Source: Bacteroidia bacterium
GTDB lineage: Bacteria; Bacteroidota; Bacteroidia; Flavobacteriales_D; Cryomorphaceae
DNA length: 64,000 nucleotides
NCBI GenBank assembly: GCA_030427905.1
Contig: JAUICL010000004.1
Coordinates: 151,722-215,721 of the forward strand
Direction of reading: 5' to 3'
The notes under the pieces are model-generated. The model worked only from the letters and a program-made list of their open reading frames with translations, did not search any database and was not told the origin of the DNA. A program made the position numbers and the translations under genes. Of the stretch, positions 1 to 20,886 are shown one piece after another (position 1 is the stretch's first letter; every line of letters starts with the position of its first letter).

Positions 1-25
1 TCTTGAACTGACCTTTCCACCATCC

Positions 26-604: not shown

Positions 605-819
605 TTATTTGTTCAATGAGGACTTTTACAACCTTCTCCCTAGCAGTTACTTCCTACGGTCGTGATCTCACAAGCTGAGATACACCCGCTCCCCAGCATT
701 TCCAAAACTAGGACCCGCTTCAACACATTTACTTCCTTTGGTCGTGATATCGCTTGCTGAGATGTAAAGCTGCGCTTCATCGCAATTAGCGAACAGCCTT
801 CGCCTAACCTACACCAATT

Positions 820-1488: not shown

Positions 1489-1704
1489 TTTGATGGAATT
1501 CTATTTCAGTTCGAACAAATTTGAGTTCCCTTCCAAAGTTGGGGCTTTGCAGCCAATTTAAGAACAAGAACTATTTCCCAATACAATATCTAAAGCACTA
1601 TTGATTATCAGTTAGTTATGTGCTTCTAGGTACAAATCAGTAACAAAAAGTCCTGAAATAGAGCTAATTAACCGCTAAACAAGTGCAAACACAAAGGTAA
1701 GGGA

Positions 1705-1737
1705 ATAAAAAAACCGCCCTAGAATTAGAGCGGTTTT
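1705..1737 (-). terminator. rho-independent terminator downstream of 1758..2396
   Basis: A 7-bp stem (AAACCGC at 1711-1717 pairing with GCGGTTT at 1730-1736) is followed by a T-run on the minus strand (the A-run at 1706-1712 on plus). Confidence 0.6.
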
Positions 1738-1757
1738 CGAGAGAGAACCAATTGCTA

Positions 1758-2396
1758 TTAAGCAACTGTTACAGAACCGATATAAACGCTGTTAGCGACT
1801 TCTTTACCGTCTTCTGATAAGAAACCTATGAAGGCTTCTACATCATCACCTACGTAGCTTGCAGGCATTCCTAAGTTCTGAGAAGTGGCACTTCTTACAG
1901 CTCCTGCGGAATCATAGATTGATTCGTCCTTGGTTGGGTTGTAAACAACTAGCAACGCCTTGTCAGTTGCCTGAGCGTTTCCGCTGCCTGTATTGTCGTC
2001 CCATGTGAACTCAACCAATCCACCTGAAGAACTAACAGCTGCGTTTGCTGCGCCTACTAATCCACCACGACTAACGAGCGCATTGGCGTAGTCAATGGTG
2101 AAGTTGGGATATGATCCCGTGATTGCGTTGTTCAAGTTGTAAGACATTGCAGCGTTGAACTGCGTCATCTTGTTTGCGTACAACTTGAAACCTACTCTCA
2201 AGAAGTCAGTCATTGACTGCAAGAATTTAAGAGTAGTTGAGAATTTAGAACGTTGGTCAACCTGACCTGCAGTTCTTGGATTCGATACGTTGGCAGGCTT
2301 GATTCTCATGTAATCAATACCTTTCCATGTACCACCTACGACATTTCCGACCTTGCCGGAGAAGCCGCCTAAGACACCTTGTGAAATTTTACCCAT
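1758..2396 (-). CDS. conserved Bacteroidota hypothetical protein (DUF6266-like, recalled from memory)
   Basis: ORF track. The N-terminal motif GVLGGFSGKVGNVVGGTWKG matches my recollection of that family. A hairpin terminator follows. Confidence 0.55.
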   Translation of the reverse strand: MGKISQGVLGGFSGKVGNVVGGTWKGIDYMRIKPANVSNPRTAGQVDQRSKFSTTLKFLQSMTDFLRVGFKLYANKMTQFNAAMSYNLNNAITGSYPNFTIDYANALVSRGGLVGAANAAVSSSGGLVEFTWDDNTGSGNAQATDKALLVVYNPTKDESIYDSAGAVRSATSQNLGMPASYVGDDVEAFIGFLSEDGKEVANSVYIGSVTVA

Positions 2397-2572
2397 TATC
2401 TTTAAATTTTTAGGGGTTAAACATTAGTTACTTGGACTTGACTCGGACTTGGTACGGCCTTGTCACTTTCCACCAAGATTACGTCAATAATTGGGCAAAG
2501 TGGTTTCTTTCGGTTTCTTAGCTCTTTCTTGCTTCGGTTTGCTTAAACTCCTATGACAAAAGGGAATGCAGG

Positions 2573-3034
2573 TCATAGCAACTCCCTGAAAAATGCCATT
2601 CTTGCGGTTTCAATCATTCTTAATGAAACATGGATTTTTTGTTCTTGAATCTCTAAGAGCTTGAAGCTCTGAATGAGTTTTTCAAGTTGTTTTTCCTTCT
2701 CTTCAGCAGCCTTTATGGTCCTTAGAAAATGCTTTCTGTATTCTCCAATGGTTATGAATGGAATCACTGAACCACGTAGAAACATTTCAAGCTGTCTTGA
2801 CTTCCAAAGTGCGTATGCTATCCAATACACCTGGTCAACCGAATCAGGATTTTCGAGGAGACAAACAAAGCAATTCGGGCAGGGTGCTTTCAATGGTTTG
2901 CCGCTATTCAATCCTTTATTCAGAATAAAGAAATGGGGCTGTGTGTAGGTGGTTTTCGGTCTGTGTGTCTTTATCAGAAGCGTTTTCATATAGCAAGCCA
3001 TTAGAATTATGCTCGCTGCGCTTCGCACAGACAT
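2573..3034 (-). CDS. hypothetical protein; the true start is probably the internal Met at 2989 (MKTLLIK...)
   Basis: ORF track. The C-terminal part looks coiled-coil-like (EKEKQLEKLIQSFKLLEIQEQK). No family assigned. Confidence 0.45.
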   Translation of the reverse strand: MSVRSAASIILMACYMKTLLIKTHRPKTTYTQPHFFILNKGLNSGKPLKAPCPNCFVCLLENPDSVDQVYWIAYALWKSRQLEMFLRGSVIPFITIGEYRKHFLRTIKAAEEKEKQLEKLIQSFKLLEIQEQKIHVSLRMIETARMAFFRELL

Positions 3035-3220
3035 TTTTAAAAGAGAAAAGAAAAAAGGGAAAAAAAGAAAAGAGAAAGCTCTCTTTGAATGTGGGGAGGG
3101 ATTGTGAACAAGGTTTTTGGATCAAATACTACCCGAAGGGTGGAGATTTTATTCAAAACCCGCAGGGCTTGACCTTGTGAAACAATACCTAGTGCTAACG
3201 ACCCACTTAAATTTGCTTTT

Positions 3221-3448
3221 CTATTTTTTTGTTTGACAACATGAACTCCCATTATCATTTTGAATAGGTGGACAGGGAGTTGAGCCATAACTGCAGTAAA
3301 CACAACAATCACCTTGTTGAGGTTTCAGTACTTTCTTACAGTTCTCGCACTCATAGAAAAATTGACATGCGTCTGTAGGCATGGTTTCTTCTTTCTTGTG
3401 ACCACATTCAGGGCAAGTAATTGTCGATTGTAGGATTATTTCGCTCAT
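3221..3448 (-). CDS. GDCCVxC-motif small cysteine-rich metal-binding protein
   Basis: Contains CPECG, CENC and the literal GDCCVYC motif. Its start overlaps the stop of the merTP-like gene (3445-3448). Confidence 0.75.
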   Translation of the reverse strand: MSEIILQSTITCPECGHKKEETMPTDACQFFYECENCKKVLKPQQGDCCVYCSYGSTPCPPIQNDNGSSCCQTKK

Positions 3449-4056
3449 TTTAATTTATTCACTGATTTAACTTTATAACCTGTATTACCGATTGCCGATT
3501 TAATTTCTTCAATATTCGTTTGAGATTCATCAAAGGATACTACGGCATTCTCATCTTCATAGGAAACTTCTAATTGTGTAATACCCGGAAGCTTACCAAT
3601 TTCTACCTTGACGTGTTCTTCGCATCCTGTACAGGTCATACCTTTAATTGAGATTTGATAGTTAGATTCAAGGGTTCTATCAACGGAATTTGAAAACTTT
3701 GTCTCAGGAAAAAAGGAGTCGGCATAGTATGGAAATGCAAGCATAATTGCGGCAAATACTGTAACAATGCCAAGGAATCTTTGCGATTGCCAAAGGCTTG
3801 GTTTTTCGACATCATCACAAGCGCATTCAATTTCTTCTTTTGACTGAGGTTTTAGTTTCTGATACCATGCAAATGCTAGAACTAGCAGTGTTATTGCTAT
3901 TAACCATGGACGAAAGGGTTCTAACCATGAAAAGGAAGCTGCTATGCCGCTAGACCCTGCAATAAGAGCTAGTACAGGTGTGATACAGCAGAGTGAAGCA
4001 CTGACGGCAGTCAGGACGCTTGTTAAGGCCAAGGATTTTGATTTATTAGGTTTCAT
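3445..4056 (-). CDS. merTP: MerT/MerP fusion-type mercuric (heavy-metal) transport protein
   Basis: An N-terminal TM region with a CC pair (SLCCITPV) is followed by a C-terminal HMA domain with GMTCTGCEEHV. Confidence 0.75.
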   Translation of the reverse strand: MKPNKSKSLALTSVLTAVSASLCCITPVLALIAGSSGIAASFSWLEPFRPWLIAITLLVLAFAWYQKLKPQSKEEIECACDDVEKPSLWQSQRFLGIVTVFAAIMLAFPYYADSFFPETKFSNSVDRTLESNYQISIKGMTCTGCEEHVKVEIGKLPGITQLEVSYEDENAVVSFDESQTNIEEIKSAIGNTGYKVKSVNKLK

Positions 4057-4421
4057 ATAGCTAGTTGTTTTTCTGAAGCCAATAGATTGAATATTGGATT
4101 GAGTATGTGGCTATTGGATTCTGCAAGTGAATAAAAAACTGTTTGTCCAATTTTTTCATACTTCACTATTCCCGCTTCCTTGAGTTTTTTTAAATGCTGA
4201 GAGATTGCAGGTACAGTCATACCGAGGACATCACTTAAATCACAAGGGCACATTTGGGATTCTTTGTCCAATAGGAATAAGATTTTTAAACGAACTTCAT
4301 TACCTGCAAGGTTTAATGCCTTTGAAATACGTGTTACTGACGCTGAGACATCTTCAATGCTTTGTTTACAGTCATCTATTTGTGCCTGATTAGCATAAAC
4401 CCTGATACATGATTTTACCAT
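4053..4421 (-). CDS. ArsR/SmtB-family metalloregulatory transcription factor
   Basis: Winged-HTH signature CPCDLSDVLGMTVPAISQHLKKLKEAGIV. It is the first gene of the merTP operon and overlaps the start of the next gene. Confidence 0.85.
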   Translation of the reverse strand: MVKSCIRVYANQAQIDDCKQSIEDVSASVTRISKALNLAGNEVRLKILFLLDKESQMCPCDLSDVLGMTVPAISQHLKKLKEAGIVKYEKIGQTVFYSLAESNSHILNPIFNLLASEKQLAI

Positions 4422-4431
4422 AATTGAGCGT

Positions 4432-4451
4432 ATTTAAGTGATTGCTTAAAT
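4432..4451. promoter_or_regulatory. 7-6-7 palindrome ATTTAAG-tgattg-CTTAAAT; candidate ArsR-family operator
   Basis: A perfect inverted repeat lies 11 nt upstream of the arsR-like start codon. A second similar palindrome sits 49 bp away. Confidence 0.5.
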
Positions 4452-4480
4452 TAACGCAAATAAAAGAAAAGAAGTTTATT

Positions 4481-4500
4481 GTTTAAGCAAATACTTAAAC
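4481..4500. promoter_or_regulatory. 7-6-7 palindrome GTTTAAG-caaata-CTTAAAC; second candidate operator
   Basis: A perfect inverted repeat with the same half-site core (TTTAAG) as 4432-4451. Confidence 0.45.
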
Positions 4501-4529
4501 ATTAAATCTACAACTGTCTTTCTTGGTTA

Positions 4530-5335
4530 GGAGTGGGGAAACGCAGGTAAACTAAGGCGAAGCCGATTTCGCGAGCCGCCTGCGAGCGGAGCAAGGGTGG
4601 TGTAGGAAAAAGCCTGAATCCCTTTAGGGTGAAGGCGACCTACGCCTATGTAGGAACTACACAGGGCTGGCGTGATTTTTTGCAACCGTGTCGGGAGAGG
4701 CAAGTGTAGTGAACGAATTGAAAGGAATGACGAGGCACAAGGAATGAATAGAAATGAGTGAACTGCTCTTGTGAGCGGAGGTGAAAGGGGCTAAGTAGAA
4801 GGAGTGGATTGAAAAGAATCGACTGAAACGCAGCGCCTGTAGCCGTGGAGGTAAGCAAAAAGCATGACAGCCCGATTAGCCCGCAGCGACCCGCAGGCGA
4901 GCAAAACAATAAGCAGCGATAACCCCCCAATTAAATATATGTGAGTTTAGCGAACACCTTAATCGGGGTTTGGGGGGATAGAAAAGCTGCGAATGAGGAT
5001 TGAGTGGAATGTGTGAAACAAAACAAATGAACGACTTGAAGTGAGCACCCACTGGAGCGCAAACTGAAAGGTAGTGAGTGGTATATGCAAGGGCGACCGT
5101 AGGGAGTGCATTTACCCTTGCAGATATGTTTTTGTGAAACTAAATGGAGCGATTGACGAATACCGCTTTACCTGCGTTGGGGTTGTGCGTTGGCAAAAAG
5201 CAAGTGTAGCACGATATGGAATGTAGCCTTGCGGAATGGAATAACGGGCTTCTCTTGCTGTGCGGTGCTAAAGGTTGGTAAATGGAATGAGGAACGAATG
5301 AAATGCACCTACCGTAGGCACATGGCCGTGGGAGG
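4530..5335. other. ORF-free, GC-richer, purine-skewed block of unknown nature (candidate structured RNA or decayed insert)
   Basis: No credible ORF. It is G+A rich on the plus strand and contains many local hairpins (CCTAC-GCCTAT-GTAGG, GCAAGGG...CCCTTGC, CCCCCCAA...TTGGGGGG) and at least six GGAATG words. Confidence 0.3.
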
Positions 5336-5337
5336 GA

Positions 5338-6144
5338 TTACTTTGCTAATTTAAGTATTCGGAAAGCACCCTGAATGACTATCAAAAAGACTATCGAACC
5401 AATTGCAAGGTCAGGAATCTGACTGCTGGTAAAATAGACAAGGGTGCCTGCTACAATCACACCAATATTTATAATAATATCATTGGAAGTAAAAATCGCT
5501 GAAGCCTGCATGTGAGCTTCTTTGCTTTTGGATTTTTGAATAAGATATAGCGAAAGACTATTGGCTATTAAGGCAAGAAATGAGATTATAATCATGGTTT
5601 GAAATACAGGCATTTCTTCCGATCCTATAAATCGCCTTATCACTTCAATTAATCCTATTAGGGCTAGGAGTAATTGAAAATATCCACTCCATTTCGCAAC
5701 GTTCTTTTTGCGGATAGCAGATTGCCCCACTGCCATTAAACTGAGCGCATATACAATTGAATCAGCCAACATATCTAATGAATCAGCCACTAAACCCATT
5801 GACCTAGAAAACCAACCAAAGAGTATCTCAATTACAAAAAATGAGAAATTAATAAGTAGTACTGCCCATAGTAGTTTTCGCTCTTTTTTGGAGTCTTTAG
5901 AGTAGTTTATTGACTCTGTCGTTTTTGATTCGAAAACTAATTTTGTATCCAATTTCAGCTCTTCTAGCAGATTCAATATTTCAGTTGAATTGCCAAGGTG
6001 CATTACAGTTAGTTTTCTGTCTTGAATTTCAAAATCAAGTTGCTGTATGGAATCATAATCGGAAAGCTTCATACGAATCATTTGCTCTTCCGAAGGGCAG
6101 TCCATTTTAGAAATGTGGAATATTGCTTTTCGCATCAAATCCAT
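5338..6144 (-). CDS. HMA-domain-fused cation efflux transporter (paralog of 22479..23270)
   Basis: The N-terminal motif ISKMDCPSEEQMIRMKL (an HMA-like variant) is followed by about six TM segments. It shares long identical stretches with the paralog (HMQASAIFTSNDII, GAFRILKLAK). Confidence 0.7.
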   Translation of the reverse strand: MDLMRKAIFHISKMDCPSEEQMIRMKLSDYDSIQQLDFEIQDRKLTVMHLGNSTEILNLLEELKLDTKLVFESKTTESINYSKDSKKERKLLWAVLLINFSFFVIEILFGWFSRSMGLVADSLDMLADSIVYALSLMAVGQSAIRKKNVAKWSGYFQLLLALIGLIEVIRRFIGSEEMPVFQTMIIISFLALIANSLSLYLIQKSKSKEAHMQASAIFTSNDIIINIGVIVAGTLVYFTSSQIPDLAIGSIVFLIVIQGAFRILKLAK

Positions 6145-6734
6145 CGTCTCACACTATTTTTATATGCTTGGTATGCTTCACCATGTGTTTCAAGTAAATA
6201 CTCTTCTTCTAATCTTACTTGAACTTGTACGGTTATGAACATCACTACTACCAATGTAAAGCTCAGGGTGTTTGGAAGAATGAGGAAAATGCCAATGTAA
6301 AATACCACTACGCCTAGGAATACTGGATTTCTTGAGATAGCAAATATCCCTTTATCAACTAATTCAGTCTTTTCGTCATAGTCTATTCCAATACGCCAAG
6401 AATCTGACATTTGAACTTGAGATATTAATGTCCAAAGAAATGAGATTAGCAGGAGGGCTATACCGACCATTTGTATTGAGTCCTGTGATAAAAAAGTGAT
6501 AGGATTCAAAAACTGATAAACAGCTGGTAGGTAGGAGTAGCAGACAATTGTTATAGCCATAAAAAGAACGGCCATTTTGTAAATGAAACCGAGGTAGTCA
6601 TGTGCTTTCTCGGTTGAACTGAAAACAAAAGGATTAACACCCGATTGCCGCCATACTATGATTGAGCGAAGCACAAAGACTATGAGCAAATACGCAACGG
6701 TGATAATTGGAGTTATGATTTGGTAAAAGTCCAT
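6135..6734 (-). CDS. isoprenylcysteine carboxyl methyltransferase (ICMT/PEMT)-family membrane protein
   Basis: A multi-TM protein with ISRNPVFLGVV and the C-terminal EEEYLLETHGEAYQAYKNSVRRWI, both typical of this family. Confidence 0.65.
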   Translation of the reverse strand: MDFYQIITPIITVAYLLIVFVLRSIIVWRQSGVNPFVFSSTEKAHDYLGFIYKMAVLFMAITIVCYSYLPAVYQFLNPITFLSQDSIQMVGIALLLISFLWTLISQVQMSDSWRIGIDYDEKTELVDKGIFAISRNPVFLGVVVFYIGIFLILPNTLSFTLVVVMFITVQVQVRLEEEYLLETHGEAYQAYKNSVRRWI

Positions 6735-6737
6735 GAT

Positions 6738-8912
6738 TTAGAAAATGTTAATCTTCACACCACCATTAAATACAAAGCCTGGAGTGGGTGCCCATATATC
6801 ATTAAAGGTTGGATTGGAAATTGGAGCATTTACAAGTGGTTCAAAATTGGTTTGTATTGTGTTGGTGAAATTCTCGAAGTTGGCAAATAGGGTAATGTGT
6901 TCAAAGTGCTTCATCACCATAAAACCCATTGTCCAATAATCAGGTTTTTGATCAAAGCTGTTATCAAATTGCTGGCCTGTGTAGTAGAGTTCGTAGCCAA
7001 CTGACCAATTGTCTTCTAATTCATACATCAGAATGAAACCTGCCATACTCTCAGGGGTTAAGGGCTGCTGCTTATTTATATTGTCGTATTTCAGTTGTGT
7101 GTTGGTATAGGTGTAATACATAAATAATTTAAAGTCTTCGTATGTGGTTCTAATCGAAGTTTCAAAACCTGAACTTTGAATTGGGCCATCGGCATTTTCA
7201 TAAAAGTATGTGCTGCTTGGTACATCTTCTCTTAGGACTAATGCTTGGTTGAGCTGTGTGAAAAAGAAGAGTTGGTTAATGGCAAACGTGAATTTGTCTA
7301 GTACAATAGTTTTATAGTTGAAGTCAATATTCCCACCAATGGAGGTTTCGGGATTGAGTGAACTTGTGCTAATCGGTGCTATATCTTTATAATAAATACG
7401 CTCCGCATCTTCTGTAAATAGCGTTGGGAGTTTATAACCCATTGCACCGCTTATCCTTGAAGAAAACTTATTGCTGTGCTTGTAAAGTAGTGCAAGTCTT
7501 GGCAGTACAAAGGGGCCATGTTCAATGTTGTAATCGGTACGTAAGCCACCTTCAAAAACAAATCTTTCACCTAAATTCCTTGTGTTCTGGACAAAAGCAC
7601 CAAACGTATTGAATGTGTAATCCTGAGAGCCAAGGCTATCAGGATTGTTGTCTGTAAAAGACTCGTAATAATGATTCACTCCTAAGTGCCATTCGTTTTC
7701 ATCTGATTTGTCGAGTTTTAGAAATGCTTCTGAAAAACTGGATAGCTGCTGTCCGTCAAATAGATAGTCGGGAATAGTTAATTCCCGGTTGAACAGGCTT
7801 ATATTATTTTTTAAAATTATTTCACGGTTTTCCTTTTGGTTCTTCAAGAGGAATTGAGAATTATACCTTTCGGATTTATTTACTTCCGTAAAGACATTTT
7901 CTATCTCGGGATTGCCGTCAATCACTTTCATATCTCCACCTGTTCTTTCATCAAGGGTTGCACCTACACCAAGCGAAACTTCTGTGTTGTTGCTGGGATA
8001 ATAAAATAATCGTGGATTTAGAGTGAGAGACTGTGATTGAGGCATGTTCGAGAAACCATCATCATCTGGGTCGTATGCTATTTGATTGTTTCCTGACCCA
8101 TACATGGTTAGTCCAAACTTTCCATACTTCTGGGCATAGAAGATATTTCCTGTAGTTCCCAATGCGCTTGTTTGGTCAATCATTATGGTAAGTTCAGGTT
8201 CTTCTTCTGGGGGTTTGGAAACCAAGTTTACTATACCTGCAATGGCTCCACCCCCGTAGAGTGTAGAATTTCCGCCTTTAATTATTTCAAATTGCTTTAA
8301 GTCAAGTGGCGGGATCTGTAAGATTGATAGCCCACCTGCAAAGCCGCCATATATCGGTGCTCCATCACGGAGCATTTGGGTATATCTACCGTCAAGTCCC
8401 TGAATACGTATGTTCATGTTTCCTGAACTCAAAGAGGTTTGTTGCATCATTATACCTGGAGACTCTCTAAGTACCATGCTTATGTTACTTGAGTTCATTG
8501 CTGCTTTCTCTCCAAGTTCTTCTAAGGTTACAGCTTCTATACGTGTTGGAATGGTCTCTATTGTTCTTGAAGAACGTGTAGCAGACACAATTACTTCTTC
8601 AAGCTCTTCACCGGATTCCATGACAATAACAATCGTTTGACCATCAGATTTAGGAAAAAGTAGTGTTTTGGATTGCGGTTCATACCCTACATAACTTATA
8701 AAAAAGTTGATTGAGCCGTTGGGAATATTTTGAAAGTGATACTTGCCTTCCGCATTTGTTGTACCACCATTTGTCGTTCCATCAATAACAATAGTTGCTC
8801 CAATGAGGCTTTCACCTTCTTCATCATTTACCTGAAAGTAAATGTTGTTTTGTGCAATAGCAGATACGCTAAATAGAATGAAAAGTGATAGAAATGCGTG
8901 CTTCATGTTCAA
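6738..8912 (-). CDS. TonB-dependent receptor with N-terminal carboxypeptidase-regulatory-like domain
   Basis: Signal peptide, a CarbopepD-like N-terminus (GATIVIDGTTNGGTTNAEGKYHFQNIPNG), a plug region, and a C-terminal beta-barrel ending in an aromatic residue (NIF). Confidence 0.85.
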   Translation of the reverse strand: MNMKHAFLSLFILFSVSAIAQNNIYFQVNDEEGESLIGATIVIDGTTNGGTTNAEGKYHFQNIPNGSINFFISYVGYEPQSKTLLFPKSDGQTIVIVMESGEELEEVIVSATRSSRTIETIPTRIEAVTLEELGEKAAMNSSNISMVLRESPGIMMQQTSLSSGNMNIRIQGLDGRYTQMLRDGAPIYGGFAGGLSILQIPPLDLKQFEIIKGGNSTLYGGGAIAGIVNLVSKPPEEEPELTIMIDQTSALGTTGNIFYAQKYGKFGLTMYGSGNNQIAYDPDDDGFSNMPQSQSLTLNPRLFYYPSNNTEVSLGVGATLDERTGGDMKVIDGNPEIENVFTEVNKSERYNSQFLLKNQKENREIILKNNISLFNRELTIPDYLFDGQQLSSFSEAFLKLDKSDENEWHLGVNHYYESFTDNNPDSLGSQDYTFNTFGAFVQNTRNLGERFVFEGGLRTDYNIEHGPFVLPRLALLYKHSNKFSSRISGAMGYKLPTLFTEDAERIYYKDIAPISTSSLNPETSIGGNIDFNYKTIVLDKFTFAINQLFFFTQLNQALVLREDVPSSTYFYENADGPIQSSGFETSIRTTYEDFKLFMYYTYTNTQLKYDNINKQQPLTPESMAGFILMYELEDNWSVGYELYYTGQQFDNSFDQKPDYWTMGFMVMKHFEHITLFANFENFTNTIQTNFEPLVNAPISNPTFNDIWAPTPGFVFNGGVKINIF

Positions 8913-8947
8913 GTTTTAATTCGAACACAAAGCAAGCTATTAAGGAG

Positions 8948-8962
8948 TGCAATGCCATTGCA
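8948..8962. promoter_or_regulatory. palindrome TGCAAT-gcc-ATTGCA between Fur paralog 1 and the TonB receptor gene; candidate Fur-family box
   Basis: An inverted repeat. A homologous copy, TGCAA-cctgt-TTGCA followed by the same AAGTTTA, lies at 31982-32003 after Fur paralog 2. Confidence 0.4.
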
Positions 8963-8966
8963 AAGT

Positions 8967-9377
8967 TTAGGTACATGTAGAACAAATGCCTTCAATCAGA
9001 TAATTAGCAAAGTTTGCTCTAAATCCATTTGGTAAATTCGGAGTTGCGATAGGGGTATCCTTTAGGCAATAGGTTTTCTCGCATTTAGTACACAAGAAAT
9101 GAATGTGGTTATCTTCCAAACTGCAAATACAGTCATCATCACAAAGCGCATATTTGATTGCTCCACTACCGTCATTGATTCTGTGTACCAAGTAGTTTTC
9201 TTGAAATGTTTTGAGCGTTCGGAATATGGTTGACTTATCAGCATTTTCGAAAAGCACTTCTAGTTCATTCAAACTTAATGCGCGATTTTGCTCCATTAAG
9301 TATTGTAAAACCAAAAGGCGCATGGCTGTTGGTTTAATAGATTTTTTTCTAAGTTTTTCTTCTTGTAAGGTGCTCAT
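8967..9377 (-). CDS. Fur-family metal-responsive transcriptional repressor (paralog 1)
   Basis: KPTAMRLLVL...FRTLKTF winged helix plus C-terminal Cys clusters (CxxC). I use the ATG at 9377; the ORF track starts at a TTG at 9386. Confidence 0.8.
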   Translation of the reverse strand: MSTLQEEKLRKKSIKPTAMRLLVLQYLMEQNRALSLNELEVLFENADKSTIFRTLKTFQENYLVHRINDGSGAIKYALCDDDCICSLEDNHIHFLCTKCEKTYCLKDTPIATPNLPNGFRANFANYLIEGICSTCT

Positions 9378-9430
9378 AAAAACCAAAGATTCGTTTTACC
9401 ATATTCGGGAATGTCGTTTGCGTTGAAATG
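9374..9430 (-). pseudogene. relic of the last 18 codons of a pAgo gene (HFNANDIPEYGKTNLWFL-stop)
   Basis: 52/53 nt identical to 32418-32470, the 3' end of the intact pAgo gene. An in-frame TAG lies immediately upstream. The relic TGA overlaps the Fur ATG as ATGA. Confidence 0.75.
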
Positions 9431-9506
9431 CCCCTACTGAAACGACATGGGCGTAGAAAGGGTTTAATACCCCAAGCATTACACTTGAGGCATTAATTGA
9501 ACCTAG

Positions 9507-10025
9507 TTACAATTCTTCTTTTACACTTCCACAATGCAACATTTTATCACCAAAATAGGGATTGTTCACTTCTTTTTCGGCACTGAGCCAATAGGCACCT
9601 TCGTTGTTGAATGCCATCGGACAATACTGCTTATATAGCTTTTGATCATTTACATTAGTTTCTTTTACCCATTTGTAAACATTTTCTGACAAGCTGTTGA
9701 AATGATCTCGCTGAGTCTTGACATCTTTTGTTTCAGCGATCAGTTTGGCGTTAAGCAGGATAATTTTCATCAAATCAGTTCGTTCGCTGCCGATTCCGTT
9801 CATGAGTTTTTTTGCGGCTTTGCTCGCTGCTTCACTATCGGTTTGCACGAGGGCATCCTTTATTTCAAGGTAGTGGTCTAATATTTCAGAAGCTTTCGCA
9901 TCAGTACTAGATAATCTTTCAGTTTTGTTTTTTGTATCACTAGTCCCTGAGCTCTCACAGGAAGATAGGAATATTAAACATCCAAGTGCGATGGTTGGGA
10001 TAAATAGAGTTTTGAGTATTCTCAT
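9507..10025 (-). CDS. DUF3347-like lipoprotein
   Basis: Lipobox-like LSSC. Its C-terminus (YKQYCPMAFNNEGAYWLSAEKEVNNPYFGDKMLHCG) parallels the C-terminus of the adaptor 10685..12466. Confidence 0.65.
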   Translation of the reverse strand: MRILKTLFIPTIALGCLIFLSSCESSGTSDTKNKTERLSSTDAKASEILDHYLEIKDALVQTDSEAASKAAKKLMNGIGSERTDLMKIILLNAKLIAETKDVKTQRDHFNSLSENVYKWVKETNVNDQKLYKQYCPMAFNNEGAYWLSAEKEVNNPYFGDKMLHCGSVKEEL

Positions 10026-10097
10026 TTTGTTGAATTTTAGAATTTTGATTAAGAAAAATTTGATGTGTTTGTATTTCGGTACTTGCTTGATTTTAAG

Positions 10098-10661
10098 TTA
10101 ATTATTTAGGTTTCGAGTTTCTTCTTCAAGTGAACCTTTGAATTGCGGCAGGGGTCGTTTCATTTTTTCTTCTTCAGATAGAACCACACCGTTTTCTTTG
10201 ATATCGTTGATTAGCCACTCCATTTCCATGATTTCTCTTCGTTGAGCTTTGACAATTTCATCGGCCAGCTCCCTTACTCTTATATCCTTAATTTGGGCTC
10301 GCTCGCTCGTAAGTATAGCGATAGAATGATGAGGAATCATCCCTTCCATATAGTCCACACCAGTAACTGTAACTTGGCTTCTCACCAGACCTATACCCCC
10401 AGCAATGAATACGATTCCTAGAAGAATTATGGCAATATTGACGTTGCGTTTTTTATACATATTTAGCATAAACAGCAGCATTATTAGAATCATGGAGCCA
10501 CCCATAATAACGGTCATGAACAAGCGTGTTTCACTAAACCAGAAATGATCAAGAACCTGGTATGAGTGGGTATACATTAAAAAAAACATTGCCACCATAG
10601 ATGTGGTGATCATTGCAAAAAATTTTAGGTAACTACTGTTGTGATTCTCTTGGTTTTCCAT
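10098..10661 (-). CDS. DUF305-like membrane protein
   Basis: TM segments are followed by the motif GMIPHHSIAILTSERA (MxxHHxxAI). Confidence 0.55.
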   Translation of the reverse strand: MENQENHNSSYLKFFAMITTSMVAMFFLMYTHSYQVLDHFWFSETRLFMTVIMGGSMILIMLLFMLNMYKKRNVNIAIILLGIVFIAGGIGLVRSQVTVTGVDYMEGMIPHHSIAILTSERAQIKDIRVRELADEIVKAQRREIMEMEWLINDIKENGVVLSEEEKMKRPLPQFKGSLEEETRNLNN

Positions 10662-10684
10662 TGCTATTGATTTTTAGTGAATAA

Positions 10685-12466
10685 TTATTTGATTTCTTTC
10701 GTTACTTCTCCGCAGGTAAGCATTGACTCTCCGAAGTACGGGTTGCGAATTTCTTTCTCTTTGCTTAGCCAATCTGCCCCTTTATTAGAATCTGCCATTG
10801 GACAATGCTGTATATAAATTGGAGATCTATTGGGTTCAAAAGACTCTGCAATTTCTATCATCCCGTTTGAAATATGGATAAAGCTTTCTCGCAGGGAGGC
10901 TATGTTTTCTTGGTGTTCAATGTGTTGTAAAGAATTTTTCAGGGAAGATGATAACTCCATCCAAACAGCATGAGCATCGCCTTTGAAAAGGTTCATATCC
11001 ACATTAGCAAGTGCAGACTTCAGTGCCAAACTTGATTGCCTTGCTTTTTTGAAATCGTCAGAAGCAAGGGCGGTTTTAAAGCTAAAATAAGACTCGAAAA
11101 GAGGCTCTATGGATTTCTTTGCAGAGGGGGATAAGGAAGTCTTCTTAATGGCAGAGGGCTTATTCTCCCTTGGAGAATTTTTTGTGCCACCATGATTATG
11201 CCCCGTCATAGCCACCCCGCCTTGAGGGTTCATCATGCTAGGTTTTCCAGCCAATTGAGCTGCTGCATCAATGCTAAAGGTACCGTGAACTGCAATCTCT
11301 TCCCCAGCTTCTAAACCTGACTCAATTACGTAACTATCTCCTAATTCTGGTCCCAACGTAACCACACGCATCATAAAACTAACACCTTGTGAGCTCTTTT
11401 GCATGACGTAAACAACAGAACGAGTGCCTGTCCACATAACGGCTGATTTAGGTACCGTTATTGATTGCTTTTTAGTTGAACTACTTGCTTCCACAATTCC
11501 ACTGGCAAACATTTCGGGCTTTAGCAATAAGTCGGCATTGCTTCGTTCTACTCTTGCTTTGGCCACTCTTGTTTTGGGATCTATTACAGGGTCGATGTAG
11601 CTGATTGTACCATTGAATGCTTTACCTGGTATTGATTGGATGGTGTATTTGACTTCATCTCCTTGGTTTATTAAACCCATGTCCGTCTCATAAATATCAA
11701 ACAATACCCAGACCTTTGTCAAGTCCGCTATTTGATAAATTGGTTCACCTTGTCTTACGTAATCTCCAAGGTTGACCATTTTTTCAGTAACATAACCTGA
11801 TACATCCGCAAGAATAGGAAATGACTCAATAGCCTGACCTGAAGTCAGCACCTGATCTATTTGCTTTTCAGTGAGCTTCCACTTCTTTAATTTTTCCTTG
11901 GCTGCATTGAATAGAGCAGGCTGTGTCGTGGCAATTTTTTGCGCTTCGAGAAGTTCTTCCTGAGCTGTCACTAATTCGGGCGAATAAAGCCTTGCAATGG
12001 TCTGACCTTTTGAAACAACATCTCCTGTAAACGTTACCGCTAGTTCTTCAATACGACCTGATACATGGGAAGATTGCGTATGCAGTAATCGTTCATCTGC
12101 CTGCACTTTGCCATTCAGTTGAATGGATTTTGTGACATTTCCCTTACCCACCGTGAGCGTTTGAATCTGTGCCAACTGCATAGCGGTAGCAGACATACTT
12201 ACTGCCATGGGGTCTAATTCTTCGTTTTGGTCTGACTTCAGCGGAATTAAGTCCATTCCACAGATCGGGCAATCACCTGGCTCGCCCTGTCTGATTTGCG
12301 GATGCATAGAACAAGTCCAGATGGTCTCTTTATCCGCATTGGTTATATGCTGATGCTCGGTTAGAGAAGTGCTATTTGATCCACCAAAAAGTAGCCATCC
12401 AATAAGTACACCGATGATCAGTGTACTTAATGCTGTGATTAGGGTAGTTTTATTCAACGTTTTCAT
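10685..12466 (-). CDS. efflux RND periplasmic adaptor (CusB-like) with an N-terminal heavy-metal-binding domain and a C-terminal DUF3347-like extension
   Basis: WTCSMHPQIRQGEPGDCPICGMDL motif, a barrel-sandwich hybrid core, and a C-terminal CPMADSNKGADWLSKEKEIRNPYFG. Confidence 0.8.
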   Translation of the reverse strand: MKTLNKTTLITALSTLIIGVLIGWLLFGGSNSTSLTEHQHITNADKETIWTCSMHPQIRQGEPGDCPICGMDLIPLKSDQNEELDPMAVSMSATAMQLAQIQTLTVGKGNVTKSIQLNGKVQADERLLHTQSSHVSGRIEELAVTFTGDVVSKGQTIARLYSPELVTAQEELLEAQKIATTQPALFNAAKEKLKKWKLTEKQIDQVLTSGQAIESFPILADVSGYVTEKMVNLGDYVRQGEPIYQIADLTKVWVLFDIYETDMGLINQGDEVKYTIQSIPGKAFNGTISYIDPVIDPKTRVAKARVERSNADLLLKPEMFASGIVEASSSTKKQSITVPKSAVMWTGTRSVVYVMQKSSQGVSFMMRVVTLGPELGDSYVIESGLEAGEEIAVHGTFSIDAAAQLAGKPSMMNPQGGVAMTGHNHGGTKNSPRENKPSAIKKTSLSPSAKKSIEPLFESYFSFKTALASDDFKKARQSSLALKSALANVDMNLFKGDAHAVWMELSSSLKNSLQHIEHQENIASLRESFIHISNGMIEIAESFEPNRSPIYIQHCPMADSNKGADWLSKEKEIRNPYFGESMLTCGEVTKEIK

Positions 12467-14490
12467 TGTAAGTCTTTTTTAAATTTTAATCTCAACAACT
12501 GTGCATTGGCGGCACAGATTATGGTGCTTAAGCTCATGAGAGCGGCACCTAATGCGGGATTGATCATAATGCCTTGATAGAATAGAACTCCCGCTGCAAG
12601 TGGAATAGCCACCACGTTGTAGCCAGTGGCCCAAATGAGATTTTGAACCATTTTCTTATAAGTTGCTCTTCCGAACAGAATCAAAGTAGCTATGTCGGAT
12701 GGGCTGCTTTCGGTGAGAATGATGTCAGCTGTTTCTGCGGCTACATCTGTACCTGATCCTACTGCAATACCTATATCTGCTGTGGCCAAGGCAGGAGCAT
12801 CGTTAACACCATCGCCAGTCATTGCAACGAACTCACCTTGCGTTTGAAGCTTCTCAATCAGTTCAGACTTTTCATGTGGCAGTACCTGACTGTAATACCC
12901 GTCAAGGTTTAATTCGTCTGATACTGCTTTGGCGGTTTGTTCATTATCGCCAGTAGCCATTAATACTTTTATGCCTTTTTCTTTAAGCGTTTCAATAGCG
13001 GATTTACTTTCTTTTCTGATTTGATCAGCCAATGCGATGAAACCTATCAAGTTGCCTTCTTTGAGAATGAACACCACAGTTTCAGGCTTGTCTGAGTTGG
13101 CTTCATTCGGAAGGTCTATACCTTCTTCTTTCAGGTATCCAGGACTTACTATTTGAAAAGTGATTCCTTCAATTTTTGCACTTACGCCTTTTCCCTTCGT
13201 GGAACCGAAATCGGAAATTGAAGGTAGTTTGAGGTCACGGCTTTTAGCTTCCTTTACAATACCCTTGGCGATGGGATGCTCGGAACTTTGCTCGATAGCA
13301 GCCGCTTTTGAAAGCAAATCTTCTTCTGATTTATCGGCTAGTGAAACTACTCGGTTTACTCCGAAACTTCCTTCCGTCAGTGTTCCTGTTTTATCAAATA
13401 CGATAGCCGTTATTTTGCGGCTGTTTTCAAAAGCTGTTCGGTTTCTGATCAACAATCCATTCTTGGCCGATAGCGCAGTAGAAATAGCTACCACCAAGGG
13501 AACAGCCAATCCCAAAGCATGGGGACAAGTAATGATCATCACAGTTACCATACGCTCAAGTGCAAAGTCCATTCCCTGTGAACTGAAGAAAGCCCACGCA
13601 ATGAATGTAATTACTCCAACACCGATGGCGATATAGGCTAACCATCCTGCAGCTTTATCGGCCAAATTCTGTGTTTTTGATTTGGTCTGCTGAGCTTCTT
13701 CTACAAGTTTTATAACCTTGTTCAGGTAGCTATCTTCACCAGATGATTTAACTTCAACTTTTAGGCTTCCATCTCCATTGATGGCCCCACCAATGACTTC
13801 ATCACCTTTAGATTTCTGAACGGGCTTGCTTTCTCCTGTTAAGGCACTTTCGTTTAGTTCGCTATCTCCTTCTACAATCTTACCATCAGCAGGCACTTTT
13901 TCTCCTGGCTTAATCAGGATCAGATCACCTTTTTTGATGTCACTTATTTTCATGTCATGAATATTGTCACCGTCTATTTTGTGAGCTTCTGAAGGCATCA
14001 ATTCAGCTAATTTTTCCAATGCTTTAGATGCTCCCATAATGGAACGCATCTCTAGCCAATGTCCTAAGAGCATAATGTCAATGAGCGTGACTAGCTCCCA
14101 ATAGAACACTTTACCTTCCAGCCCGAATACTACTGCCGTGCTGTAAGCCCATGCTACGGTAATGGCAATGGCAATAAGAGTCATCATACCAGGACCGCCT
14201 TCAGAAAGTTCATCCTTTAATCCTTTAAGGAATGGCCAGCCACCATAAATGAATATGAATGTTGCTAAAGCGCCTGCTACATAGCCCATGCCTGGAAAAC
14301 TGATCGAAAAGCCAAGTATGTCTTGAATCATTTCAGAAAAGGCCAAAACAGGTATGGAAAGCGCAGTATTGATATAAAAGCGCTTTTTGAAGTCTTCTAT
14401 CATATGGGCATGGTGATCATGATGACCGCCATGTGAATCATGATTATTGTGTGAGTGTTCGTGCTGTTTATGATCGTGTTGATGTTCCAT
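12463..14490 (-). CDS. copB: heavy-metal P1B-type ATPase, CopB-like (CPH motif, His-rich N-terminus)
   Basis: DKTGTLT, ITCPHALGLA, GDGVNDAP, and an N-terminal HQHDHKQHEHSHNNHDSHGGHHDHHAH stretch. Confidence 0.85.
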   Translation of the reverse strand: MEHQHDHKQHEHSHNNHDSHGGHHDHHAHMIEDFKKRFYINTALSIPVLAFSEMIQDILGFSISFPGMGYVAGALATFIFIYGGWPFLKGLKDELSEGGPGMMTLIAIAITVAWAYSTAVVFGLEGKVFYWELVTLIDIMLLGHWLEMRSIMGASKALEKLAELMPSEAHKIDGDNIHDMKISDIKKGDLILIKPGEKVPADGKIVEGDSELNESALTGESKPVQKSKGDEVIGGAINGDGSLKVEVKSSGEDSYLNKVIKLVEEAQQTKSKTQNLADKAAGWLAYIAIGVGVITFIAWAFFSSQGMDFALERMVTVMIITCPHALGLAVPLVVAISTALSAKNGLLIRNRTAFENSRKITAIVFDKTGTLTEGSFGVNRVVSLADKSEEDLLSKAAAIEQSSEHPIAKGIVKEAKSRDLKLPSISDFGSTKGKGVSAKIEGITFQIVSPGYLKEEGIDLPNEANSDKPETVVFILKEGNLIGFIALADQIRKESKSAIETLKEKGIKVLMATGDNEQTAKAVSDELNLDGYYSQVLPHEKSELIEKLQTQGEFVAMTGDGVNDAPALATADIGIAVGSGTDVAAETADIILTESSPSDIATLILFGRATYKKMVQNLIWATGYNVVAIPLAAGVLFYQGIMINPALGAALMSLSTIICAANAQLLRLKFKKDLQ

Positions 14491-14492
14491 AA

Positions 14493-15725
14493 TTATTTCG
14501 TTTTTGCCGTTATATAGTCCAACTCAGCCAAAGCGATATGATAATCCGACAGGGCAGTGGCTTTCATTCGTTGATACTTTAAAATTTGCTGTTGCATCCG
14601 CAGTACTTCTTCAAACTCTTTCCCTGAGTTGCTGTAGGCTGAGAAAAGGAGGTTGAGGGATTGCTCTGATTCCTGAATTTGCTCTTCGAATAATTCAATG
14701 AGTTTAAGCTGTTTCTGAATCTCAAACCAAATCATTTCATAGGAGCTAATAAGCCGATTAGATACTTCTTCCTTTTGAAACTCATAGGATTCTTGCATCA
14801 ATTGCGCTTCATTTTGGGCAGCTTTATATTTCCCACGAAAAATGGGAAGGCTCATGGTAACCATGGGCATCAATACATCCTTGCCATTATCAGATATGGT
14901 GGCGTCCGTTCTTTCTCCAACAATCACATAGTCAAGACCTACCCCAAACTTGGGTAGCCCTTGTTTGATAGCCGCCCGTTCCTGGGCTTGGCTTGCCTGA
15001 ACCTTCAGATCCAGTTCTTCTAATAAAGGATTTGCCAACAGCAATGAATCCTTTCTAAAATCTGGTATGATTCTTTTTATTTGAAGCGAGTCAATTATCT
15101 CAATGGATTCGTTTTCATCTCGATTTAAAAGCTTATTAAAGCGGGTTTCCAGAGGCTTTTTCTTTTGATTGAGAATAGATAGTTCAGTGGTTGCATCCTT
15201 TAGCATGATGTCTACACGCAGCGCATCTACCATCGACCCTTTATCATTTTGAAACTGAACAGTGGCTATCTCCTTGTAAGAAGATAGAATGCGTTGATTT
15301 TCTGCTTCAATCGAAATCAGCTTTTCTAGTTCATAGAGCGGATAATAGGAGGCGGCCACCTGATAATAGAGCTTGTTTCGAGCATCCAGAAATTCCTGAT
15401 ACTTCGCTTCCGCCAACAGGGAAGCGGCATCTTTTTGGGCACTTAGCGTTCCAAACCAGGGAAACATTTGGGTTAAAGAGAATCTGGCTTGTTGAGGGCC
15501 AACTCTGGTTTCAACAGGAGAGATGAAGTAACCAAAAGACAAATTTGGATCAGGTAAGGTACTCACCTGTGTGACCCTTTGTATTGCTGCTTCAAAGTTT
15601 TTGTATTTAGCCAAAAGCCCAGGGTTATTTTCTGCGGCTATTTGGAAATAGTCTTCTAGCGTTTGAGCATTTCCTGAAAAGTGAAAGCCCATGGCAATGC
15701 ATATGATTAAGATAAATTTCTTCAT
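14493..15725 (-). CDS. TolC-family outer membrane efflux protein
   Basis: Signal peptide from MKKFILIICIAMGF. Its ATG overlaps the RND pump stop as ATGA (15722-15725). It has the repeated alpha-helical/beta pattern of OMFs. Confidence 0.8.
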   Translation of the reverse strand: MKKFILIICIAMGFHFSGNAQTLEDYFQIAAENNPGLLAKYKNFEAAIQRVTQVSTLPDPNLSFGYFISPVETRVGPQQARFSLTQMFPWFGTLSAQKDAASLLAEAKYQEFLDARNKLYYQVAASYYPLYELEKLISIEAENQRILSSYKEIATVQFQNDKGSMVDALRVDIMLKDATTELSILNQKKKPLETRFNKLLNRDENESIEIIDSLQIKRIIPDFRKDSLLLANPLLEELDLKVQASQAQERAAIKQGLPKFGVGLDYVIVGERTDATISDNGKDVLMPMVTMSLPIFRGKYKAAQNEAQLMQESYEFQKEEVSNRLISSYEMIWFEIQKQLKLIELFEEQIQESEQSLNLLFSAYSNSGKEFEEVLRMQQQILKYQRMKATALSDYHIALAELDYITAKTK

Positions 15726-18700
15726 GATTGAGCTTTTTTGATTTTGCGTTCTTCTCTCCAACAGTAAAGCACTGGAACAATGAAATATGTGATAGCCGCA
15801 AATAGCATCCCGCCAAAGGCGGGTATTGCCATGGGTATCATTATATCGGACCCACGGCCTGTTGAAGTGAGGATAGGGAGCAAGGCAATAATGGTAGTGG
15901 CAGAAGTCATCACAGCAGGTTTTATTCTTCGCTGACCTGCTTCTACAGTAGCTGCTCTAATACCTTTAAGGTGGTCTGTTTTGTTTCGCTTAAAACTCTG
16001 ATCTAAATAAGTGGCCATCAAAACGCCATCATCAGTTGCGATACCAAATAGGGCTATAAAACCGACCCAAACTGCTACACTGAGATTGATGGTGTGAATT
16101 TGGAATAGGTCTCTGAAATTGGTGCCGAATATGGAAAAGTCGGCAAACCATGTTTGACCGTACAACCAAAGGATAATGAAACCACCACTAAAGGCCATGG
16201 CAATACCTGTAAACACCATTAAGGATGTGGATACAGATTTGAACTGAAAATAGAGAATTAAGAAAACGATTCCAAGAACCAACGGCACGATTATGGACAG
16301 CCGCTTTTCTGCTCTAACCTGATTTTCGTAGCTTCCTGAAAATTTGTAGCTCACTCCTGAGGGAACTGTCAATTCTCCTGAATCTATTTTTTTCTGAATA
16401 GCTTGTTGCGCATCATTTACTACAGTTACTTCAGAGAAACCATCCATTTTATCGAACAGAACATAACCAACCAAAAAGGTTTCTTCACTCTTGATGGCTT
16501 GAGGCCCCCTTACGTATTTAAAATCTATAATTTGAGATAGCGGGATTTGGGCGCCTGTAGGTGTTGCCATTAATATTTTGCCAAGAGCTGAAGGGTCATC
16601 CCTAAGTTCTCTTGGATAGCGAACTCTAACAGGAAAGCGCTCACGTCCTTCTACCGTTGAGGTAATCTTCATACCACCAATAGCGGTTTCGATGGTCTGT
16701 TGAACATCTTCGATGTTTAGCCCATACCGTGAAATTTCATCGCGATTGATATTTAGATGTAGGTAAGGTTTACCCACTATCCTGTCGGCAAAGACCGCTT
16801 CTCGTTTTACCGATGGAACTTCTTTGAGGATGCTTTCAAGCTGCAAGCCAAAGTCTTCTATCGTTCTCAGTTCTGGGCCATAAACTTTTATTCCCATAGG
16901 AGCACGCATACCCGTTTGAAGCATTACCAACCGCGTTTCTATAGGCTGAAGCTTAGGGGCTGAAGTAACCCCTGGAATCTTGGTGACTTTTATAATTTCA
17001 TTCCAAATATCATCTGGTGATTGTATGTATTCACGCCAATTACGGTAGTATTTACCATTATCATCTGCAATTAAATCGCTCGCATCAATTCCCTGTTCTA
17101 GACCTTCTTGGTTACTCAGGGTATCACCCGAAACGGTGATGAAGTGATTGTTATCACCTACTTTAAACCTTTGTCTATGCCCCTTTTTGTTGAGAATGTA
17201 TTCGGACTTGTAATTGATGACGTTTTCATACATCGAAATGGGTGCAGGGTCAAGAGCAGATTCTACCCGTCCTAATTTACCTACCGTCAATTCCACTTCA
17301 GGTATATTGGTTAGCAACATATCCAATTGCCCGACCACTCTTCGATTGTACTCCATACCTGAGTGTGGCATGGAGGTGGGCATGAGTAGGAAACTGCCTT
17401 CATCTAGTGAAGGCATGAACTCCTTACCAATTCCTGGAAAGGTATGCGCCAATTCAGACCAAGCTTTAGTCTTATTTATGTTCCAGCCTACGGATTCAAA
17501 TCCTTTGGAGACAAAGCCGAAAACGGTATTGAAACCAAGCCAAATGTTGGCAGCCAACAGAATAAGCAAAGAAGGAATGACAAGAAACTTTGTTTTATTA
17601 TTGAGGCACCAATGCAGAATTCTTTTGTATTCATATTCTAATAGAGTGAAGCTGCCCAAGATTACAGCTACTAAAATGGCTACAAATGCGAAGTTGATGG
17701 GGAGAGACTTTGATGCCCCCAGTGGTAACCAGTATTTTGCCAAGAGCCAGGTAACGCCTATTAATACGATGATTAACTCTGCGTACTGGTATAAAAAGAA
17801 AACGGGTTTCGGAAAGTTCTTGCTGTTGGCATTTAAGAATTGTTTGAGAATGCCTATTACACCAAAGAGAAATAGCATCACTCCACCCCAAACCTGACCA
17901 AAAGCAAGTGCGACTACCCCAATGATGACAAGTGAGTAGCTACCGTACTTTTTGAGCAGATTGTTCTTGATTTTGAACCCGAAAAACCAATGTGCCAGGG
18001 TAGGCATAATTAACAGACTCACGAGCAGTGCAGCAATCAGGGCAAAGGTTTTGGTAAAGGCCAAAGGCCCAAATAGCTTTCCTTCGGCTGCTTGCATGGT
18101 GAATACAGGAATGAAGCTCACAATGGTGGTAGAAACTGCTGTTAAAATAGCGGTAGCCACTTCTGACGCTCCGTTGTAAATAGTGTTAATCAGTTTCTGC
18201 CCAGGTGGGGCTTCATCAATGTGTTTGATGATATTCTCTGAGAGAATCACGCCTAAATCGACCATCGTTCCAATGGCAATGGCAATACCCGATAGCGCAA
18301 CGATGTTGGCATCCACTTCAAAGTATCGCATGGCGATAAACACCATGAGCACAGCAATAGGTAGTATGCTTGAAATGAGAAAAGAAGCTCTAAGATTATA
18401 CACCATTACAATCACTACTAAAATGGTAATGAGTACTTGCAGTGAAATGGCTTCTTCGAGCGTGCCTAAGGTTTCGTAAATCAATTCCGAACGATCGTAG
18501 AAGGGCACAATGGTTAATTGAGATTCTCTGCCATCTGCTAAAATTTTCTGCGGAAGCCCAGGTGCTATTTCTTTTATCTTCTCTTTTACATTGTTGATGA
18601 CCTGCAAAGGGTTGGCGCCATAGCGTGCCACAACTACTCCACCCACTACTTCTGCGCCATCTTTATCTAGCAAGCCCCTGCGGGTAGCAGGGCCGAGCGA

Positions 18701-20078: not shown

Positions 20079-20125
20079 AGATACGAAATTACAAATTGAG
20101 TGTTTTACAGAATTTTGACTTTGGT

Positions 20126-20881: not shown

Positions 20882-20886
20882 CTTGT

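Follow-up and report, generated by a model that had tools for sequence, protein, structure and literature searches.

A pAgo 3′ remnant as a probable recombination scar between metal-resistance modules of an integrase-bearing island in Bacteroidota

Results

A pAgo gene stands between an integrase-bearing backbone and three metal-resistance modules

The window, i.e., the whole 64-kb stretch of DNA that was analysed, opens with a genomic island that spans positions 1 to about 41000 at a G+C content of 0.37–0.45. The mnmE gene (41150–42559) adjoins the island, and at ~41 kb the G+C content rises from ~0.40 to ~0.50. With a tyrosine integrase and an excisionase-like HTH gene beside mnmE and a composition shift at this point, the region bears the hallmark of an integrative element, and the mnmE–HTH_17–integrase layout recurs at two other loci (L009 and L143). 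The backbone occupies 34507–40910 on the minus strand and reads, in minus-strand order, HTH_17, the tyrosine integrase (39466–40560), DUF6617, two HTH_17 genes, a BT4734-like primase N domain, DUF3987/PriCT_2 and XRE, followed by an intact long pAgo gene with a Piwi domain (32414–34510, minus strand). The host of the island is a member of the Bacteroidota with T9SS-type proteins, and relatives of the island were found in Schleiferiaceae, Salibacteraceae and Acidiluteibacter. Comparison of 40880–41260 with 1–6000 gave no convincing att repeats of the whole island, and no transfer genes were recognised within the window; the far end of the island may lie beyond it.

Three cargo modules follow the pAgo gene on the same strand. 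M3 (21589–32402) comprises fur2, DUF6660, a CzcA-OEP fusion, HlyD, a P-type ATPase and two CDF genes. M2 (9507–21543) begins with an HMA-AraC regulator, HMA-MauE, a 142-aa ORF, CusA and OEP and continues with a P-type ATPase, CusB-DUF3347, DUF305 and a small DUF3347 gene. A 76-nt spacer (9431–9506, minus strand) then leads from the DUF3347 stop to the element studied here (the relic, 9374–9430), behind which M1 starts with fur1 (8967–9377), the gene of a 136-aa Fur-family regulator, and goes on (1575–8966) with a TonB-dependent receptor, PEMT-like, CDF, ArsR, MerT-HMA, DUF6943 and DUF6266 genes. The relic is placed exactly at the joint of M2 and M1.

Several features of the window are recorded for their own sake. 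An ORF of 1470 aa (27149–31561, minus strand) combines a full RND pump (ACR_tran) with an OEP domain, and this RND-OEP fusion is also present in L058 and L096 at 45% identity. The segment 9713–10655, which holds DUF305 and the 5′ two-thirds of the small DUF3347 gene, represents another allele (60% nucleotide identity) than most M2 copies; against Acidiluteibacter ferrifornacis (L084 and L095) the allele switch falls ~180 nt before the relic, and there is hence more mosaicism inside M2. The chromosomal part (43576–46185 and 55520–56618) carries a dense family of interspersed repeats of 30–150 nt with hairpin-forming cores (GTCACATCGAGTGGC...TGTATCGAGATG; CCCCGAAGGCTTTCGGGG) that match no Rfam family.

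The relic repeats the 3′ end of the intact pAgo gene

Positions 9378–9430 and 32418–32470 are identical at 52 of 53 positions and lie 23040 nt apart, start to start. The initial annotation had reported both figures, and they held in a repeat analysis with a shuffle control: with up to three mismatches allowed, the 53-mer has two matches in the 64-kb window and none in 100 shuffles, and the chance expectation of a 52/53 match in 64 kb is ~8e-21. Read on the minus strand, the intact copy (32470–32418) is the end of a 698-codon Piwi-domain ORF that closes with ...APHFNANDIPEYGKTNLWFL and then TAA (32416–32414); it encodes HFNANDIPEYGKTNLWFL, that is, the last 18 residues of pAgo, as had been proposed. 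The relic, also on the minus strand, consists of the 53 nt (9430–9378), the rest of the last Leu codon and a TGA, and it encodes HFNANDIPEYGKTNLWFL and a stop. Its frame is kept into TTA TGA (TGA at 9376–9374), and this stop overlaps the fur1 ATG (9377–9375) as ATGA, so that the earlier reading of an open frame ending in the Fur start codon (9374–9377) stands. Directly 5′ of the relic lies an in-frame TAG GGG (9436–9431). Upstream of it we found no similarity to pAgo, the sequence being spacer and the end of the DUF3347 gene; here too the initial annotation, which had noted a TAG and unrelated sequence, was right. The stub has no ORF upstream of it and is a truncated gene fragment: no ORF reads through it into the fur1 start, and the DUF3347 gene ends 76 nt before it.

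No integrase or transposase lies between the two repeat copies; in a Pfam scan, the large ORFs of this interval (9507–32402) code for metal transport and regulation only.

The 18 codons match the C-terminus of a pAgo family

The nearest solved relatives of the pAgo protein are AfPiwi (1w9h), RsAgo (5awh, 6d8a) and EcAgo, and a protein search returned 165 homologues at E≤1e-10. We compared the C-termini of 120 listed of the 165, which reach down to 42% identity, and nearly all of them end in ...KYPEMVAxxxPHFxxxxIPxxGKxNLWFL. Since this ending is so widely shared, the 18 relic codons are the intrinsic C-terminus of the pAgo family, and HFNANDIPEYGKTNLWFL fits the ending PHFxxxxIPxxGKxNLWFL in frame. 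A codon-degenerate scan for the C-terminus, run on one genome per species with loci taken as 8-kb blocks, gave at least 118 matches, almost all in Bacteroidota, and among the matches listed the pattern mostly closes an ORF of 670–700 codons. Neither the 53-mer nor the pattern occurred outside a pAgo end or stub among the listed genome matches or in a metagenome scan, and an Rfam scan of the window matched no family. We therefore rejected the idea that the repeat is a regulatory motif into which the pAgo gene happens to run: the 18 codons are the family C-terminus, and every copy found was a pAgo end or a stub. No 53-mer standing before a fur gene without a pAgo origin appeared among these copies, and the element is, judged by its sequence, a genuine pAgo gene fragment (a pseudogene stub), as the initial annotation had it, rather than a free-standing fur element.

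The same scar is carried by many diverged elements

The same stub with the same upstream flank (the DUF3347 gene end, the 76-nt spacer and TAGGGG) recurs in at least 12 further assemblies, among them MAGs of Schleiferiaceae (L087), Flavobacteriales (L088), Bacteroidia (L037) and Salibacteraceae (L124), the isolate Acidiluteibacter ferrifornacis S-15 (L095), and TARA, JGI and ENA contigs (L123, L125–L128 and L132); contigs L129 and L131 start inside the relic. The spacer accompanies the relic in all copies. A. ferrifornacis, in the adjacent blocks L084 and L095, has the order pAgo (97% aa identity)–ATGA–M2–relic–M1, with the repeats 11.5 kb apart and no M3, and the Salibacteraceae MAG (L110 and L124) shows this order, likewise without M3. 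Both versions are 92–94% identical to the window at the nucleotide level, and elements carrying the relic junction differ by 6–8% in DNA. A recent in-situ deletion was rejected on these grounds, the same scar with the same flanks being found in many assemblies that have diverged by 6–8%. The scar is inherited, and no pAgo was deleted in this genome.

Among the relic-bearing elements, identity to the window is 96–100% for the relic (53 nt), 96% for the 76-nt spacer, 93% for the DUF3347 3′ end and 98–100% for the fur1–TonB intergenic region. Conservation of the relic is not above that of its flanks (93–100%). The window and A. ferrifornacis relics differ at two of 53 positions, which is unremarkable at ~7% divergence (P=0.27), and the one position at which the resident pAgo departs from the relic is equally unremarkable at the 93.6% identity of related pAgo genes (P=0.14); this TTT/TTC difference is the only informative site that bears on concerted evolution. 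It is correct, as was pointed out initially, that the relic is far better conserved than the adjacent fur coding DNA, the Fur1 and Fur2 proteins sharing only 50% identity and their genes differing far more in DNA than the two 53-mers do. The contrast arises because fur1 and fur2 are old paralogues of different modules, their orthologues elsewhere being 85–100% identical for each. The conclusion once drawn from it, a very recent event or functional constraint, is not needed, as the relic is conserved to the same degree as its flanks.

Three observations accompany these copies. In L126 (~9770–10000) and L128 (~1440–1671), the DUF3347 gene in front of spacer and relic is reduced to its last 24 nt, and this nested scar is preceded by an unrelated MbnP/MauG copper module. 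The Logan contigs L137 and L138 both break off within the relic, ~105 nt beyond the DUF3347 stop codon, and L138 is 23,062 nt long, near the 23,040-nt repeat spacing; this suggests that the 53-nt repeat breaks short-read assemblies and that the M3 and M2 structure of the window exists in the L138 run. Finally, the 55 nt behind the fur1 stop, which form the fur1–TonB receptor intergenic region (8913–8966), show 98–100% conservation in all M1 copies, also in those whose fur is only 69–91% identical. At all three fur paralogue loci the stop is directly followed by CTTTGCAA-N5-TTGCA (also below 32001, and at 2873–2900 of L002), and the post-stop region with CTTTGCAA is a candidate for an operator or promoter of the gene behind it.

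Uninterrupted pAgo–fur1 junctions exist elsewhere

The initial annotation had suggested a search of related genomes for a pAgo in front of fur1, and we found two. L130, recovered by an exact Fur1 protein look-up, contains the C-terminal 392 aa of a pAgo up to the contig edge. The last 53 nt of this gene equal the relic at 53 of 53 positions and are followed by the ATGA overlap, an exact Fur1 and the complete M1; nucleotide identity to window 9430–1575 is 97.9%. The L130 pAgo itself is only 94.8% identical to the window pAgo at the nucleotide level and ~5% diverged from that of every relic-bearing element examined. L103, from Algoriphagus pacificus, carries a full-length, divergent pAgo (54% aa identity) whose 3′ 53-mer is 72% identical; the junction string TGGTTTTTATGAGCACCTTACAAGAAGAAAAACT has the same ATGA overlap, and behind it come a Fur1-like gene and an M1 with 92–95% aa identity. 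The order pAgo–ATGA–Fur1–TonB receptor is uninterrupted in both. The intact junctions of L130 and L103 establish the pAgo–fur1 arrangement, of which the relic is a leftover. In principle, L130 could be a loop-out product instead of an ancestor; such an origin is impossible for L103, and for L130 it is disfavoured by the ~5% pAgo divergence. The claim that a pAgo–fur junction once existed at the relic thus stands with these two loci, and its second part, a pAgo deletion, does not hold for this genome, which inherited the junction ready-made.

The pAgo stop codon marks a seam between backbone and cargo

A Fur-like gene lies directly 3′ of pAgo in 20 of 121 pAgo-end loci among the matches listed. 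The ATGA overlap was seen at 15 of the listed loci, its partner being a Fur-like or HMA-AraC regulator in all except L018, and overlap or abutment of a metal-regulator gene at the pAgo stop concerns about one listed locus in six. At the intact locus of the window, fur2 (32001–32402, minus strand) heads M3 with its ATG at 32402, separated from the pAgo TAA by 11 nt. Genes of the fur2 type stand behind other pAgos in L021, L056, L092 and L107, and genes of the fur3 type do so in L002, L083, L085 and L118; modules headed by fur2 also directly follow other pAgos elsewhere. M2 takes the same place, directly behind the pAgo stop, in A. ferrifornacis, the Salibacteraceae MAG and the TARA contig L122.

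Comparison of related elements places breaks at the same point. Between the window and A. ferrifornacis, similarity ends at the last two pAgo codons and resumes only inside HMA-MauE, and therefore the difference is a replacement and not a simple insertion. Between the window and the TARA contig L002, whose pAgo is 94% identical at the nucleotide level, the break falls ~70 nt before the stop, and L002 continues behind pAgo with a third Fur, DUF6660 and CzcA. Moreover, the first 15 codons of fur1 come in two unrelated versions, MSTLQEEKL... and MKDVIENKL..., behind an unchanged relic. The pAgo stop codon is, as far as these alignments tell, the boundary between a conserved backbone and variable cargo, and the breaks together with the mosaic fur 5′ ends would fit cargo exchange in which pAgo and backbone act as the left homology arm. 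As a separate observation, the last ~70 nt of the L002 pAgo switch allele (L002 2380–2465 against window 32414–32500), which makes its 3′ end a mosaic, and this tail is identical to those of pAgos that are only ~47% identical overall (P0082 and P0086).

pAgo 3′ stubs have arisen repeatedly

At least 10 further independent pAgo 3′ stubs, of different alleles and with breakpoints that range from ~19 to 87 codons, were found in other Bacteroidota. The shortest, in L111, retains ~19 codons. In L120 (1394–1625), a distance of 155 nt separates an intact pAgo from a 21-codon stub that comes from a different allele; this looks like replacement of the backbone or of the pAgo with the old tail left behind. 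L096 retains 23 codons before a fur2-type gene. L094, from a Marinoscillum MAG, keeps 25 codons: behind an M2-like module, the N-terminal 121 aa of a CDF transporter run in frame into the 25-aa stub (L094 6007–6426), and the two meet at a short common LVA motif. The remaining cases are L078 (~27 codons), L089 (34 codons, with HMA-AraC behind the stub), L049 (~40), L004 (62), L039 (65) and L114 (87).

Longer C-terminal pAgo fragments occur in L009, L011, L013, L042, L058 and L091. In L009, a Muribaculaceae MAG (570–4748), mnmE, HTH_17 and the integrase are followed by the C-terminal 322 aa of a pAgo; this is a member of the island family, inserted at the same site, from which an internal backbone deletion has removed primase, XRE and the 5′ part of pAgo. 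Stubs of at most 90 aa make up 11 of 17 fragments (P=1.4e-7 against uniform breakpoints), in a survey that was anchored on the 3′ end. The excess hints at selection or at a mechanism beyond random deletion. We treat it as a lead and not as a result because of this anchoring and because older fragments may erode to short ones.

Discussion

How did a pAgo 3′ end come to lie between two cargo modules? Most probably, 9374–9430 is a non-functional pAgo 3′ fossil, the scar of a recombination between two metal-resistance modules of an integrase-bearing island. Within the family, cargo modules whose first gene is a Fur-like or HMA-AraC regulator abut the pAgo stop, often through ATGA, and M1 would once have occupied this position directly behind a pAgo whose allele group was that of the resident gene. 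Illegitimate recombination 54 nt before the stop of this old pAgo would then have placed a unit of backbone, pAgo and M2 upstream, and all of the old gene except the last 18 codons would have been lost; the 76-nt spacer would be the M2 side of this junction. The likeliest route would bring related islands into tandem, with subsequent deletion of the inner backbone. The composite M2–relic–M1 would then have spread, and in the lineage of the window a later swap with one anchor in the pAgo end and the other in HMA-MauE would have put M3 behind the resident pAgo. No second, shorter pAgo stub was found at the M3/M2 joint (21543–21589).

We infer the order of these events, the passage through accretion and deletion and the M2-side breakpoint from the comparison of present-day elements. 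Breakpoint and route rest on inference because a donor, that is, M2 with its spacer running into its original downstream sequence, was not found. A metagenome scan gave one pAgo–ATGA–HMA-AraC junction, and all sufficiently long contigs with the exact DUF3347 protein have Fur downstream.

The relic itself is probably without a function of its own, and it plausibly keeps the native initiation context of fur1. That it was selected as an expression element, the pAgo tail being kept because the adjoining regulator gene has its promoter or translation-initiation region there, is in our view improbable. This idea draws on the start of fur1 inside the pAgo stop, which puts its initiation region within pAgo coding sequence, on the strong over-representation of short stubs, on L126 and L128, which lost most of the DUF3347 gene and kept 153 nt upstream of fur1, and on the wide occurrence of Fur1, whose exact protein is found in 61 blocks of the collection of assemblies and whose gene is evidently functional behind the stub. 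However, the relic is no better conserved than flanks that look neutral, inspection revealed no good match in it to the Bacteroidota −33/−7 promoter, five stubs (L004, L039, L049, L078 and L111) have no Fur-like gene directly downstream, and the nucleotide sequences upstream of fur2 and fur3 are unrelated to that of fur1. Metatranscriptome contigs also cross the upstream module, spacer, relic and fur1 unbroken, with no sign of a start inside the relic, which is weak evidence as these are assembled contigs. Even less credible are attL/attR sites of a site-specific element that targets the pAgo 3′ end, an origin that we consider highly improbable and have set aside. Its geometry, integration into a gene 3′ end with duplication of that end, does resemble what we see, but the 23-kb interval lacks an integrase or transposase, and independent stubs vary in breakpoint without a fixed core, differing breakpoints being an argument against one; moreover, paralogous fur genes lie on the same side of both repeat copies, and all copies of the relic have a single flank in common.

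Homologous recombination deserves more weight, since 53 nt are long enough for RecA-dependent exchange and the direct repeat with the live pAgo end could allow RecA to loop out or re-insert the 23 kb. A circular cargo with a pAgo end might integrate by a Campbell-type event, via RecA, into the 3′ end of a resident pAgo, restoring the pAgo ORF and leaving the other copy as the relic, with loop-out of the cargo as the reverse reaction. Several observations agree with such a shuttle: what lies between the direct repeats of 53–59 nt is cargo only, 23.0 kb in the window and 11.5 kb in A. ferrifornacis; it is the upstream repeat that makes the pAgo ORF whole; L130 represents an "empty" form; fur 5′ ends are mosaic behind an unchanged relic as if this were a left arm; and other swaps between related elements break within the pAgo 3′ end. 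Yet a prior illegitimate event is still needed to join spacer and 53-mer, so that the shuttle would explain the propagation of the scar and not its origin; the one upstream flank of all relic copies is consistent with a single event and inheritance, L130 has no recent origin in any relic-bearing element that we saw, and no circle or deletion junction was observed among the assembled contigs. We therefore hold the shuttle to be unlikely as the explanation of the relic. A stronger version, in which the pAgo 3′ end is a dedicated docking handle and cargo between live end and stub loops out and, by recombination over short homology, re-inserts at any related pAgo, seems to us quite doubtful. If true, pAgo islands would be a cassette-like platform for metal-resistance modules, with the excess of short stubs and the repeated breaks in the last 2–25 codons as its footprint. 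Recombination-stimulating activity has been reported for pAgos, and a contribution of this activity to docking is conceivable.

The fossil scar that we favour belongs to a known kind, in which the remnant of a gene marks a joint between modules of a mosaic integrative island. Remnants at module junctions that arise by tandem accretion and internal deletion are familiar from ICESt1/ICESt3 and CIME of Streptococcus thermophilus and from the variable regions of SXT/R391. The present island resembles these systems in its conserved backbone with variable cargo behind a fixed boundary, in its composite of several cargo blocks, and in a short non-coding backbone-gene stub that marks a lost second backbone. 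It differs from them in that it has no internal att site or second integrase remnant, a defence gene (pAgo) provides the boundary with its stop codon, and stubs have formed many times independently within the family. Integrase-mediated insertion at att sites in tRNA, tmRNA or protein genes similarly produces direct repeats of a gene 3′ end that flank the insert, with the proximal copy keeping the gene intact; unlike those inserts, the cargo here is free of recombinase genes, and independent cases differ in their breakpoints. For the repeat, a combination of homologous and illegitimate recombination is the simplest explanation. Like the RsAgo/AfPiwi-like long pAgos on mobile elements, the pAgo described here is a Piwi protein of ~690 aa beside an XRE gene, and it differs in that the stop overlaps or abuts Fur-like or HMA-AraC genes in about a sixth of the listed loci. 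The literature searched contained no description of this association of the pAgo stop with metal regulators, or of pAgos carried with metal cargo by Bacteroidota integrative elements. A seam at the stop of a long pAgo, its overlap with metal-regulator genes and recurring pAgo 3′ stubs are modestly new.

What does the scar tell us? With it, the assembly of a metal-resistance island from three modules can be dated and its steps put in order, and it shows that cargo swaps in a widespread island family of marine and aquatic Bacteroidota take place at a fixed seam, the pAgo stop. In practice, pAgo stubs are open to miscalling as small ORFs or regulatory motifs, and short-read assemblies apparently break at the 53-nt repeat, as in L137 and L138. 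The frequent ATGA overlap of pAgo with Fur-like or HMA-AraC genes is, finally, a hint that a defence gene and a metal-responsive regulator may be co-expressed.
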